64,000 nt of DNA from contig OZ024740.1 in NCBI GenBank assembly GCA_964016885.1, forward strand, positions 411,246,001 through 411,310,000, read 5' to 3'. Each line of letters opens with the position of its first letter. Positions within the stretch are counted from its first letter, which is position 1. Position numbers and translations under genes: made by a program. Of this stretch, positions 1 through 50,501 are shown piece by piece. The notes under the pieces were generated by a model that worked only from the letters and a program-made list of their open reading frames with translations, was not told the DNA's origin and searched no databases. The stretch comes from Eledone cirrhosa (lineage: Eukaryota).

Positions 1-740
1 GGTGAGGCTGACCCTGTACCCATCTTTCTTTACCATTTGTTTGGCATTTTCTAAATCCTCCTGAGTTACCGTAAATGCTTCGAACTGTTTTGCTACTCTG
101 GCGAAACTGAGGGTGGTTTTTATAATGTCATTGTTGTTGTTGTTGCTATCGTTATTTGTGTTAATATAAATTTTAGTTTCAGTTGTGGTGGTGGTGACGT
201 CAGTCGTCTTTGGTGGGGAAGTGTCCATTTTGCTTGATTTCATTTCGACATCATGAGTTAATTTATTTTTTCTTCTTTTGTTTCTGTTGTCGCGGTGGTG
301 GTGGGGGTGGTGGTTGTCGCGGTGGTGGTGTTGGTGGAGGCTTTAACACCTGCAGTCATTGGTAAAGGCGGGAAATGAATGTCTGCCTGAGACAAATTTA
401 AAATATTGCTACTGCTTATATTTTTTTTTAGTGTTGGCAAACGTAGTAACATTTACAATGGTGGTGTCGGTGTGAGGTGTTAATTTGTGAGAAAGGCTTT
501 CAGCTGCTTGGTGCAGAGGTGAATTAGCCATTTTTTTTCAAAGAAATTTTTTGATAATAATAAAAGTTTAAATTTTTCGGCACAAGGCCCCAATCTTTTT
601 GGGTGTCCTTTTCGGAAAACAATGTATGTGCGCTTATAAACAGTTAACAATTAAATTTTCCATAAATGACAATTTTTAACAAACGGAAATAACAAACCTT
701 TGCGGAGCTCACGATGATACGATTTACTACGTAGGTCGCC
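1..740 (-). mobile_element. 5' end of a Tx1-clade LINE (family C): 5' UTR and degraded ORF1 start (ATG at 531); runs off the window
   Basis: Minus-strand translation near 1-110 gives SFARVAKQFEAFTVTQEDLENAKQMVRK, homologous to Tx1-A ORF1 SFAGIAKNLETILITNEELEEAKKMVSK. It has the same A-run+ATGGCT start, and its 5' end abuts (ATT)n. Confidence 0.75.
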
Positions 741-815
741 AATAATAATAATAATAATAATAATAATAATAATAATAATAATAATAATAATAATAATAAT
801 AATAATAATAATAAT
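741..815. repeat. (AAT)n between head-to-head Tx1-C (-) and Dong A1 (+)
   Basis: Direct reading. Confidence 0.98.
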
Positions 816-3193
816 TGTTCGACAACAACCAGAAGATGCTGTTTGGACAGCTTGAGGGGAAAGAAAGAGGCAACGACTTGATCCCTGGGGCGGAGCAAAC
901 TAAAACATTCTGGAGAGGAATATGGGAGCAGGATGTTAGACACAATGCCCAGGCAGGGTCGATTGACACAGTACAGAGGGAGATCGGTGAGCAGGCACAA
1001 CAACAAACTGATTTGAGTATCACAGTTGAAACTCTTAAGGGGCAGGCAAAAAAACTAACCAACTGGAAATCACCAGGCCCAGATGGTGTGCAGGGGTATT
1101 GGATTAAACATTTAACATCCCTCCACCCGAAGCTGACGGCCATGTTCAATGACTGCTTGGTGTCGGGTGAGGTGCCAGAGTGGTTGACAAAAGGTACCAC
1201 AGTTCTGATAATGAAAGACCGAATCAAGGGTAATGATGTTACCAACTATAGACCTATCACATGCCTGTCCGTAATGTGGAAACTGTTGACGAGCATTGTG
1301 TCTGAGGAAATCTACCATCACCTCCACACAAACAACTTGTTACCGGACGAACAGAAAGGATGCCGAAAGAAGTCACGTGGTACAAAGGACCAGTTACTTA
1401 TTGATAAGATGGTAATGGGGAATTGCAGGAGGAGACACACTGATCTTGCCATGGGATGGATAGACTACAGAAAGGCATTTGACATGGTGCCTCATTCCTG
1501 GATCACCAAAAGCCTGGAGATCTTCAGGGTGGCAGATAACATCAGACAGTTGCTACGCAGGAGTATGGGGTCCTGGGAGACAGAGTTGACATCAACTGGA
1601 GTATCCTTGGGAAACGTGAAGATCAAGAGAGGTATCTTCCAGGGAGATAGCCTGTCCCCTCTGTTGTTTGTCCTTGCCCTGATGCCCTTGACCATTATGC
1701 TGCGAAAAGTGAGAGCAGGATACAAGTTGGGAAGGGGAGAGCTTACCATCAATCACCTCCTCTTCATGGACGATCTTAAGCTCTTCGGGAAAAGTGAGAA
1801 GGAGTTGGATGTGCTTGTTGACACTGTCCGTATTTTCAGCATTGATATATGTATGCAGTTTGGTATTGGTAAATGTGGAGTCATTGTGAGGAAGAGGGGT
1901 AGGTTGAGCAGAAGTAACGGGATCCAGATACCAACAGGTGAGATAATAAAGGAAATTGACTCTGAGGAAGGATACAAGTATTTGGGCGTTCTGGAGGCTG
2001 ATGGCATAAAGAACAAAAAAATGAAGGAATTGTTAAGAACTGAATACATTCGGAGCGTGTTGAAGTCACATCTGAACAGCAGAAATGCCATAAGCGTAGT
2101 AAATTTCCGAGCTGTGTCTATTATTAGGTACAGTGCGGGAATTCTGAGATGGAATGTTGCTGAACAAAAAGAAATGGATAGGAAGACTAGGAAGCTATTG
2201 ACTATCTACAACATGTTCCACAAGAGGAGTGATGTCGATAGACTCTACCTAAGGAGATCTGAGGGTGGAAGAGGTCTTATCAGCATAGAGGACTGTGTTC
2301 AGATGGAGAAAAACAACCTATACAAATACGTGACCTATAGTAAGGAGCCAATGCTCAGAACTGTACTGAAGGAGGGGACAGTAGGCCAGGGGATGTCCAA
2401 GGAGTAAATAACATCAAGGAGGAAGAGCAGCCTTAAGGGAAAATCCCTTCATAGTACCTTCTTTGAGAAAACTGAATTTAGAGATCCACAGACATGGAAC
2501 TGGTTGAGAAGAGGAGACCTCAAAAAGGCTACAGAAGGAATGCTAATGGCTGCGCAGGAGCAGGCCCTCAAAACGAAGTGGTTGAAGCACCATATCTACA
2601 AGGAAGAGGCTAGCCCACTGTGCAGGATCTGTGGAGAGAGAGAGGAGACTGTGGCTCACATTGTGTCCGAGTGTAAACACCTAGCCCAGACCCACTATAA
2701 GGGCTGGAGACACGATGTGATGGGCAGGGTGATCCACTGGCACCTGTGCAAAGTAAACAATTTACCACATTCTGAGAAATGGTATGAGCATAGGCCAGAG
2801 GCGGTGATGGAGAACAATCAGGTGAAGGTGCTGTGGGATTTTAGGATACAGACGGACAAAAAACTGGAACACAATAGACCTGACCTGGTGGTTGTGGACA
2901 AAGAAAAAAGATCGTGTCTGATTGTGGATGTGGCCTGCCCGTTCGACACGAGAGTGCAAGAGAAGGAGAGGGAGAAAATTAACCGATACCAGGACCTAAA
3001 GTGGGAGGTGAAAAGAATTTGGAACTGCCATGAAGTCAAAGTGATCCCGATTGTCATAGGCGCACTGGGGACTATCTCCAAAAGTTTCCAGGGATGGTTA
3101 AAGAAAATCGGCCCCTTCACGCTTTTTGGAACGCTTCAAAAGGCATGCTTGCTTGGAACAGCAAGAACCCTCCGATACGTCCTGAATATCTGA
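816..3193 (+). pseudogene. Dong A1 RT-zinc knuckle-RLE ORF, premature TAA at 2405-2407
   Basis: ORFs 815..2407 and 2504..3193 share a frame and are split by GAA>TAA. Confidence 0.9.
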
Positions 3194-3267
3194 GGCTGCA
3201 GGTAGTGGCTTGATATTCAATCCAACGGACTTTCCAGTTAACCAACATCAATGACTGAGATTAAAGG
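816..3267 (+). mobile_element. R4/Dong-clade non-LTR retrotransposon, family A copy 1, 5'-truncated
   Basis: RT motifs (YRPITCL, IDYRKAFD, GIFQGDSLSP, LFMDD), CCHC CRIC-x8-H-x4-C, RHD, and RLE RPD...D..CP...EK..RY; 74-nt 3' UTR, then (AAT)n. Confidence 0.93.
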
Positions 3268-3407
3268 AATAACAACAATAATAATAATAATAATAATAAT
3301 AATAATAATAATAATAATAATAATAATAATAATAATAATAATAATAATAATAATAATAATAATAATAATAATAAGAAGAAGAAGAAGAAGAAGAAGAAGA
3401 AGAAGAA
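3268..3407. repeat. (AAT)n tail grading into (AAG)n
   Basis: Direct reading. Confidence 0.97.
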
Positions 3408-48800: not shown

Positions 48801-48876
48801 TTTGTACCGTCCTGTATTGTCCTGTACTGTCCTTAATGTCTACTTTATGTAAACCCTTGTGGTTAATAAAGAAAAC
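42899..48876 (+). mobile_element. Tx1-A copy 3, full length (ORF1 43111-45209; ORF2 45245-48633, disrupted)
   Basis: APE, WKLN, YADD and CCHC; tail (ATT)n at 48877-48927. Confidence 0.92.
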
Positions 48877-48927
48877 ATTATTATTATTATTATTATTATT
48901 ATTATTATTATTATTATTATTATTATT

Positions 48928-48988
48928 ATAAAATAAAGTACCAGTAATGAACTGGGTTATTGCTGGCCTTGTGCCTAAAGTAGAAACA
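48928..48988 (+). mobile_element. 5'-truncated SINE copy 3 with (ATT)n tail to 49024
   Basis: ATAAAATAAAGTACCAGT...GGCCTTGTGCCTAAAGTAGAAACA matches the 3' half of SINE1/2. Confidence 0.85.
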
Positions 48989-50168
48989 ATTATTATTATT
49001 ATTATTATTATTATTATTATTATTGACTATCTACAACATGTTCCACAAGAGGATTGATGTCGATAGACTCTACTAAAAGAGATATGAATGTGGAATAGGT
49101 CTTATCAGCATAGAGGACTGTGTTCAGATGTAGAAAAACAACCTGCACAAATACGTGACCGACAGTAGGGAGCCAATGCTCAGAATTGTACTGAAGGAGA
49201 GAACAATAGGCCAGGGGATGTCAAAGGAGGAAATAACAACAAGGAGGAAGAGCAACCTTCATGAACAATCCCTTCATAGTACCTTCTTTGAGAAAACTGA
49301 ATTCAGAGATCCACAGACATGGAACTGGTTAAATAGAGGAGACCTTTAAAAGGCTACAGAAGGAATGCTAATGGCTGCGCAAGAGCAGGCCCTCTAAATG
49401 AAGTGGGTGAAACACCATATTTACAAGGAAGAGGCTAACCCACTGTGTAGGATCTGTGGAGAGAGAGAGAGGAGATTGTGGCTCACATTGTATCCGAGTG
49501 TAAACACCTAGCCCAGACTCATTATAAAGGCTGGAGACATGATGTGACGGGCAGGGTGATCCACTGGCATCTATGCAAAGTAAACAATTTACCACTTACT
49601 GAGAAGTGGTATGAGCATAAGCCAGAGTCGGTGATAGAAATCGATATGGTGAAGGTGCTGTGGGATTTTAGGATACAGACGGATAAGAAACTGGAACACA
49701 ATAGGCCTGACCTGGTGGTTTTGGACAAGGAAAATAGATCGTGCCTGACTGTAGATTCGACACGAGAGTGCAAGAAAAGGAGAGGGAGAAAATTAACCGA
49801 TACCAGGACTTAAAGTGGGAGCTAAAAGGGATTTGGAACTGCCATGAAGTCAGAGTCGTCCCGATTGTCATAGAGGCACTAGGTACTATCTCAAAAAGTT
49901 TCCAGGGATGCCTGAAGAAAATTGGCCCCGCCCCGCTTTTTGGAACACTTCAAAAGTAATGCTTGCTGGGAACAGCAAGAACCCTCCGATACGTCCTGAA
50001 TATGTGAGGCTGCAGGTAGCGGCTTGATATTCATTTCAACAAACTTTCCAGTTAAATCATGACTGAGACTCAAAGAACAATAATAATAATAATAATAATA
50101 ATAATAATAATAATAATAATAATAATAATAATAATAATAATAATAATAATAATAATAATAAAAATAAT

Positions 50169-50501
50169 GATTTCTTTATTAACCACAAGGGTTTACATAA
50201 AGTAGACATTAAGGACAGTACAGGACAATACAGAGCGGTACAAATGGGCATTTCTGCGAGTAAAAAAAAACAAGAAACAGAGGATGTAATAATAGAACAA
50301 TGAAAAAATTCCCCAATAGTGGGGAGACTTCCGAGGGACTTTGGTGAAGAAAGCCCATTAAAAAGCCACCGCTTCGTATTTTCTTAGTGTAGTGCCGATC
50401 GCCTCGATGTATTTAGCGTTCGACACCACTACGGTGACATCGTCCGCATATGCTGACACGGATCTTCCGCATCCTAGTTCGCGCGGGACCCCCTCAACGT
50501 C
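50169..50501 (-). mobile_element. Tx1-A copy 4: 3' UTR joined to a 130-bp RT fragment (internally deleted and truncated)
   Basis: 50169-50369 matches 24965-25155; 50370-50501 matches ~26479-26610. Confidence 0.85.

Follow-up and report, generated by a model that had tools for sequence, protein, structure and literature searches.

TRAS and SART, two lineages of the R1 clade of retrotransposons that lack long terminal repeats (non-LTR elements), share one tandem repeat, the (TTAGG)n telomeric repeats of Bombyx, in opposite orientations and in mixed arrays (PMC7265360, PMC10088271). We describe a comparable arrangement in a 64-kb stretch of the Eledone cirrhosa genome (contig OZ024740.1, positions 411,246,001 to 411,310,000; hereafter the window, numbered from 1), in which Dong-like elements, Tx1-like elements and a short interspersed element (SINE) are stacked in AAT/ATT trinucleotide repeats. 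The two systems differ in that TRAS and SART both use apurinic/apyrimidinic endonucleases (APEs), belong to one clade, carry poly(A) tails and insert into a target made by telomerase, whereas the window combines a clade with a restriction-like endonuclease (RLE) and an APE clade in an interstitial trinucleotide repeat, with tails equal to the target and a SINE that joins in. An RLE and an APE element, Utopia and the Tx1-clade Keno, have also evolved the same target in parallel, the U2 small nuclear RNA (snRNA) genes, but their identical 3′ flanks place them in the same orientation, and that RNA-gene target is not renewed by insertion (PMC4640811).

Other precedents concern single ingredients. 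Kibi, Koshi and crocodilian Tx1 elements are microsatellite-specific, for (TC)n, (TTC)n, (TTCC)n and (TTTC)n, but the text consulted describes neither (ATT)n as a target nor a repeat shared with an RLE element; in the same source, the crocodilian SINEU is likely mobilized by Tx1-Mar, shares its target and often lies in tandem with it, but has snRNA-derived heads and a Mariner target, ours being a different SINE in a microsatellite target (PMC4494074). A TAA-repeat target is described for Bombyx Dong, DongAg and DongBg (PMC3812793); here there are two Dong families. In Octopus vulgaris, Dong-R4 elements are abundant and recently active, L1-Tx1 elements are recently active, and SINEs make up 11.6% of the genome (PMC13282606). 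In the literature searched, we found no Tx1 specific for (ATT)n and no case in which Dong and Tx1 use the two strands of a single repeat; the supplementary figures of PMC4494074, which list Tx1 targets, may bear on this, and Repbase Reports may already describe Tx1 targets in octopus. Each ingredient is precedented, and the combination, together with an (ATT)n-targeting Tx1-SINE pair, appears to be undescribed.

Sixteen elements could be placed in the window by self-comparison, open reading frames (ORFs) and junctions (Table 1). They form two arrays separated by host DNA (3406-7895), rather than the single array of the original prediction. The small array consists of a minus-strand Tx1C (1-740), (AAT)25, DongA1 (816-3276) and (AAT)32(AAG)11. 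In the main array (7896-50502), where element sequence accounts for 41,954 of 42,607 bp, plus-strand DongA2, A3, A4, DongB and DongA6 follow one another with (AAT)n between each, and a minus-strand Tx1A comes next; the right part holds DongA7 (hereafter Dong7), interrupted at two sites, then (AAT)27, then a minus-strand Tx1A remnant. Site 1 of Dong7 is occupied by SINE1, and site 2, about 75 bp beyond, by SINE2, Tx1B, Tx1A, Tx1A and SINE3. This is a nested non-LTR stack in which Dong (RLE) reads (AAT)n and Tx1 (APE) and the SINE read (ATT)n; we consider it probable that the pattern comes about through nicking and priming on opposite strands of the repeat by the two lineages, with new repeat left behind by insertions.

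The orientation of the elements at their junctions carries this reading. Specifically, i) all seven Dong copies lie on the plus strand with (AAT)n directly at both 5′ and 3′ junctions; ii) wherever one of the six Tx1 copies borders a run, that run is ATT in the sense of the element, five of the six 5′ junctions following (ATT)n and the sixth copy (50168-50502) having ATT only as its tail; iii) the three array SINEs all read ATT, two of them after runs and SINE1 in a duplicated 13-16 bp target starting with a 6-bp ATTATT; and iv) nowhere in the window does AAT flip directly to ATT. The sense rule originally proposed for all three groups thus holds in full for Dong, holds for Tx1 apart from the 5′ junction of the remnant, which is in no run, and holds for the SINEs apart from the site of SINE1; the further proposal, that an RLE and an APE clade lie oppositely oriented in one trinucleotide repeat, implying opposite-strand priming, is borne out by domains and junctions alike. 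Since the tail is a family trait, the 3′ junctions are not independent evidence, and only the 5′ junctions test target choice: 15 of 15 assessable 5′ junctions (7 Dong, 5 Tx1 and 3 SINE, counting the ATTATT of SINE1) agree in polarity, with p ~2e-4 if each family were free in orientation.

A 15-nt ATT run pattern gave 206 matches versus 0 in 100 shuffles, and just one run of at least 4 units occurs outside the arrays (17,988 bp). The phase of the 5′ junctions is also regular: the break falls between ATT and G in 5 of 5 Tx1 copies and is compatible with a break directly after AAT in 6 of 7 Dong copies. Within the window, the Tx1 target is sequence-specific, with five of six 5′ junctions in (ATT)n and a fixed phase. 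The SINE looks preferential rather than strict for ATT. In the 4,386 nt of a Dong copy, ATTATT occurs once in sense and three times in antisense, and SINE1 took the sense one (~5e-4 per insertion), while both nest sites are the sole two sense CTATT sequences in the 2.5-kb DongA3.

The six plus-strand ATT runs (31343-49024) lie within the Dong7 ORF and are insertion products, not an old microsatellite. At the second site, where each of the other five DongA copies carries one ATT, Dong7 has 56 units in six runs; five insertions with 5-unit duplications would yield 26 units, so that tails or slippage contributed about 30, and the shortest left-hand runs (5, 6 and 6 units) are in keeping with a duplicated stretch of some 15 bp, as is SINE1. 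For the idea that new target arises through insertion, this 1-to-56 site is the strongest evidence; the idea is thereby supported at one site, and the nest within Dong7 supports self-seeding better than the argument originally given for it. That argument had assumed one microsatellite, and there were at least three seed sites for the repeat; its claim that arrays grow themselves is supported at the second site of Dong7 and finds no support at SINE1. Elsewhere, the run at 50079 could be the tail of the Tx1A remnant taken by Dong7, an order that no duplication backs, and the closest Dong pair (A1 and A4, 99.3%) has a common AAC-interrupted tail start, which suggests that the tail is carried in RNA.

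The copies themselves argue for independent insertions, the families involved being two of Dong and three of Tx1. Likeness between copies is 88.8-99.3% in DongA and 95.4-96.3% in Tx1A; the longest identical stretch between copies is 306 nt; neighbours are not the closest copies (99.3% for A1-A4 versus 98.6% for A3-A4, and 96.3% for Tx1A p2-m versus 95.4% for p1-p2); and the truncation point differs in every copy. Divergence, non-adjacent closest pairs and differing truncations led us to reject tandem duplication. No read or contig spans the array, and 2-6 kb repeats joined by microsatellites are hard to assemble, but the same features make it highly improbable that the array is a product of misassembly or tandem duplication, as do the base-exact rejoining of Dong7 across its 18-kb nest, the greater age of Dong7, the most diverged DongA, relative to its contents, and the presence in three runs of one sample, possibly the source sample, of 76-77% of the words of 49025-53400.

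The Dong-like copies are likely R4/Dong-type RLE non-LTR elements, as judged from architecture and TAA-repeat target. In Pfam, their ORF matches RVT_1 (E 1e-22) without Exo_endo_phos; DongA and DongB, which share 34% amino acid identity, both carry a CCHC knuckle and the RH..PD..D..K motif of a restriction-like endonuclease; the best solved-structure matches are to R2; and a profile of 21 Dong relatives matches the R2 reverse transcriptase (RT) and the R2 C-terminal nuclease region. R2 has an N-terminal zinc finger; the first 330 residues of DongA2 contain no C2H2 or CCHC pattern, hence no such finger. Utopia has one to three of them, Dong has been assigned to the R4 lineage, and a placement of Dong among APE elements conflicts both with that assignment and with the domains found here (PMC4640811, PMC3774820 and PMC3812793, respectively). 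None of 120 Dong-like relatives among the matches listed bears the name R4 or Dong, and with no named R4, Dong or Tx1 reference in our comparisons the clade names rest on architecture and target. The original identification of Dong as an RLE element in TAA repeats is supported by the RT, CCHC and PD..D..K motifs and by the seven copies in (AAT)n; what it calls Dong comprises two families, and what it calls Tx1 three.

Between the two long DongA 5′ untranslated regions (UTRs), homology starts at the very first bases (score 132, against at most 75 in 500 shuffles), so that their AAT boundaries are true junctions. Bombyx Dong has a hepatitis delta virus-like ribozyme at its 5′ end; at the Dong 5′ ends of the window, Rfam found none, nor did a custom descriptor in seven 5′ regions, run without a positive control. 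The DongA 5′ UTR (7958-8878 and 20570-21340, plus strand) may contain a spliceosomal intron, with a GTAAGT that lies 38 nt inside the 5′ end of copy 6, and with a T-rich tract plus TACAG about 125 nt upstream of the ORF start; this candidate acceptor ranks second by pyrimidine content in copy 6 and outside the top five in copy 2. Copy 2 starts exactly at the G of that GTAAGT, a weak hint that it could derive from a splicing intermediate, if the intron is real.

ORF2 of the Tx1-like elements matches Exo_endo_phos, RVT_1 and zf-RVT in Pfam, and the 8 top of 9 PDB matches of its endonuclease are L1 endonuclease or variants. ORF1 has no Pfam match; its Atlas look-alikes (zf-CCHC and a ZCCHC3-type RNA-binding domain, 0.91-0.94) are a lead only. 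Of the three families, A and B are 63-64% identical in nucleotides, and C is known from 740 bp of its 5′ end. A protein of Argonauta hians is a named relative of the Tx1A RT piece (76% identity across 49% of the query). An RT tree of 103 rows, none of them a named L1 or Tx1 reference, joins the window Tx1A and Tx1B with P0121 in a clade (support 1.0), which sits among loci adjoining U2 RNA (5 of the 11 scanned) or 5S RNA (1 of the 11), with linking nodes of 0.69-0.77; the 5S-targeting Tx1 element is Mutsu. We also observed a second, shortened U2-like sequence upstream of the ORFs of Keno-like Tx1 relatives (E 4e-10 to 2e-9; Table 1). A further Tx1 array in tandem is suggested by the P0205 cluster, ten Tx1-like RT proteins of Coilia grayii that are almost identical and whose locus numbers lie close together on a single contig. 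In the window, AATAAA stands 6-9 nt ahead of the ATT tail, and poly(A) is absent, at all five Tx1 3′ ends (37181-37237, 42824-42880, 48820-48876, 24964-25020 and 50168-50224); the exact Tx1A 3′ motif had no match in metagenome contigs.

The SINE is about 190 bp long and non-coding, with a 13-16 bp target duplication at SINE1, and a common 3′ hairpin makes Tx1 its likely mobilizer. Its last 40 nt match Tx1B (shuffle p 0.004) and Tx1A (p 0.047) and do not match the Dong 3′ ends (p 0.85 and 0.97). A four-pair hairpin with loop CUUGU stands at the 3′ ends of the SINE, Tx1A and Tx1B, which share about 20 nt; three of its four pairs are changed on both sides, 88.9% of cells pair, and none of 500 shuffles reaches its covariation score (slid controls at most 0.31 versus 0.61). 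Whole 3′ ends fold no better than shuffles (z -0.8 to 0.5). ARAGORN found no tRNA gene and Rfam no tRNA match in the SINE head, a search in which decayed heads can score low; decayed heads of tRNA-derived SINEs often fall below the detection threshold. A likeness of the SINE body to U2 was at chance level (E 0.21) and was rejected. We presume a likeness to the Nin-domain SINEs of octopus. A common SINE subfamily has an extra segment past window position 31233 (7,048 loose ends in one run), which is also present in the older copy at 52223-52403 and absent from the three array SINEs.

Six public runs carry the same species label, none of them RNA or labelled long-read, and four were compared with 30877-42960, a comparison that left out three repeat junctions, including both Tx1 5′ ends. 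The SINE supplies the deepest bins of that stretch in both contig runs, and joints of a SINE 3′ end to a SINE 5′ end (head-to-tail) occur in 17-89 contigs per row. The joint of 31358 to 42881 is likely a product of long ATT runs split across two reference runs. Past the Tx1A tail there are 8,206 and 9,237 reads with loose ends whose consensus agrees with the DongA6 3′ end, read in reverse, at 25 of 30 letters, which would fit Tx1-Dong tail-to-tail junctions in two other samples and is only suggestive. A boundary at 40586, with more than 20,000 loose ends in each restriction site-associated (RAD) run, was rejected as a non-autonomous family: an AATT restriction site lies there, so the loose ends are likely library chimeras. 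A depth estimate by which about 0.2 of Tx1A 3′ ends adjoin a neighbour bearing a restriction site was dropped, since chimeras confound it.

In target-primed reverse transcription, priming takes place on the strand complementary to the one that the element reads, ATT for an element reading AAT and vice versa. Dong would then prime on ATT, and Tx1, like the SINE, on AAT, and the junction phases suggest that both lineages may cut at the single TpA step of the repeat, which is common to both strands. Each insertion would split a run and duplicate 5 units, or about 15 bp; slippage, or tail repeats encoded in the RNA, might add further units, so that target sites would rise with each insertion. What sets the polarity, the nuclease or pairing of the tail, is a choice that sequence alone cannot make, both having precedent in SART1 and TRAS1. 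It is quite possible, if short of probable, that RNA-DNA pairing does so, with loose nicks at TpA in AT-rich DNA that become productive only through pairing of their 3′ end with the repeat tail, which is AAU in Dong and AUU in Tx1 and the SINE, and the same pattern would be expected in the window. SINE1 required just six matching bases and added none; the AATAAA without poly(A) at Tx1 3′ ends suggests that copying may start inside the repeat; and pairing of repeat-like RNA with the nicked target has been proposed for SART1 (PMC7265360). The fixed 5′ phase of Tx1, on the other hand, suggests defined second-strand cutting, and endonuclease swaps transfer specificity between SART1 and TRAS1 (PMC7265360); pairing and strand-specific cutting can also operate jointly.

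Another explanation, which we think unlikely, is that only Dong is repeat-specific, and that Tx1 and the SINE are weakly ATT-preferring elements piling up in a tolerant cluster of dead repeats. The older SINE at 52223 and the 5′ end of the Tx1A remnant lie outside pure runs and the consensus of SINE flanks is weak, as this explanation would have it, but all five intact Tx1 5′ ends, from three families, fall in one phase within pure runs, which account for a few percent of the array, and Tx1 breaks the body of another element only through an ATT run.

Several observations weigh against the opposite-strand stack that we prefer, which rests on one locus. Among Tx1 relatives, an AAT/ATT run of at least 15 nt was found in 0 of 80 scanned out of 365 related loci, relatives that are 25-44% identical and too distant for a target rule, and many of whose contigs stop near element ends. 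The Tx1A remnant, with its 5′ junction outside a run, has no target duplication; no repeat units came with the SINE1 insertion; at the 1-to-56 site, the first event is unexplained, having produced no long duplication; and the six runs that Tx1 and the SINE built are all free of Dong, which leaves the original claim that each tail regenerates target for all members unsupported. No contig or read in the four runs spans the array across 30877-42960; the SINE 5′ flanks are T-rich with an agreement of 0.45-0.47 (762 contigs; 19,600 and 19,906 reads), a level that speaks for preference and not for strictness; reads anchored by ATT alone may account for the Dong loose ends, a Dong restriction site lies 125-140 nt from the end, and library chimeras arise at AATT sites; and the nine hairpin rows represent three families only, which makes the covariation evidence modest.

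Table 1. Elements, repeat runs and related features of the window; loci of other genomes are given in the last rows.
Feature	Position	Strand	Match
Tx1-like family C, 5′ UTR and ORF1 start, remainder beyond window; 5′ end at G directly after ATT	1..740	-	tblastn vs Tx1A ORF1, 49% over 45 aa, E 2e-7
(AAT)25, Tx1C/DongA1 head-to-head junction	741..815	+	
DongA copy 1, 5′-truncated; then (AAT)32, then (AAG)11	816..3276	+	
(AAT)n, left edge of main array, adjoins host DNA	7896..7957	+	
DongA copy 2, near full length, ~1 kb 5′ UTR	7958..12387	+	
DongA copy 3, 5′-truncated, inside copy 2 tail (AAT)27	12469..14958	+	
DongA copy 4, truncated immediately ahead of ORF; RT, CCHC, RLE	15003..18545	+	
DongB, second R4-like family, 5′-truncated; CCHC and RLE motifs	18639..20504	+	34% aa to DongA, E 1e-95
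DongA copy 6, longest 5′ end	20532..24917	+	
(AAT)15, DongA6/Tx1A tail-to-tail junction	24918..24963	+	
Tx1A, full-length (ORF1, APE-RT-zf ORF2)	24964..30861	-	
(AAT)14, Tx1A/DongA7 head-to-head junction	30862..30903	+	
DongA copy 7, piece a	30904..31088	+	
SINE1 at Dong7 ATTATT; 13-16 bp target duplication, zero repeat gain	31086..31265	+	
DongA copy 7, piece b, duplicated target at its start	31266..31342	+	
(ATT)5, first of six runs at Dong7 single-ATT site	31343..31357	+	
SINE2, full length, then (ATT)6	31358..31545	+	
Tx1B, full-length, then (ATT)10	31564..37237	+	
Tx1A with internal deletions, then (ATT)6	37268..42880	+	
Tx1A, full-length, then (ATT)17	42899..48876	+	
SINE3, terminal 61 bp only, then (ATT)12	48928..48988	+	
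DongA copy 7, piece c, with the 3′ end; of all DongA copies the most diverged (89-92% to others)	49025..50078	+	
(AAT)27 and imperfect units, Dong7/truncated Tx1A tail-to-tail junction	50079..50167	+	
Tx1A remnant, 1.3 kb internal deletion; 5′ junction outside any run	50168..50502	-	
Older SINE copy beyond array, flanks ATT-rich without pure run	52223..52403	+	nhmmer E 3e-24
Second U2-like sequence	L002:701-817		
Second U2-like sequence	L004:554-716		
Second U2-like sequence	L005:782-896		

Beyond the arrays, 6357-6661 and 7347-7650 are an inverted 305-bp pair, 94% alike and about 690 bp apart, either resembling a miniature inverted-repeat transposable element or representing a short repeat in two opposed copies. 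A separate RT ORF of 542 aa (54483-56111, plus strand; RVT_1 E 2e-32), with a (TGTA)n run upstream, is by its motifs presumably RTE-like, and a 232-aa frame without a Pfam match (63103-63801, minus strand) is what we take to be similar to the GIY-YIG end of a Penelope-like element. The longest simple run of the window, (TCT)47 at 53466-53606, is element-free, as is (ATT)7 at 56872.

The locus adds (ATT)n to the list of Tx1 targets, names a likely partner long interspersed element for a very abundant SINE, and makes the birth of a microsatellite target visible at a datable, base-exact site; with two unrelated endonuclease folds acting on one three-base repeat, it also offers a clean system for asking whether nuclease or RNA tail determines orientation. 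Octopus has the most microsatellites of 719 genomes surveyed (PMC6387519), and the array offers a testable source for part of them. A broader scenario is possible but rather doubtful: across octopods, Dong, several Tx1 families and the abundant SINE would form an obligate two-strand (AAT/ATT)n community that nicks the same TpA step from opposite strands, each insertion making target for all and a single ATT being able to seed a run. If that were true, the record load of microsatellites in octopus, and large hot spots of retroelements, would have a main source in such a community.

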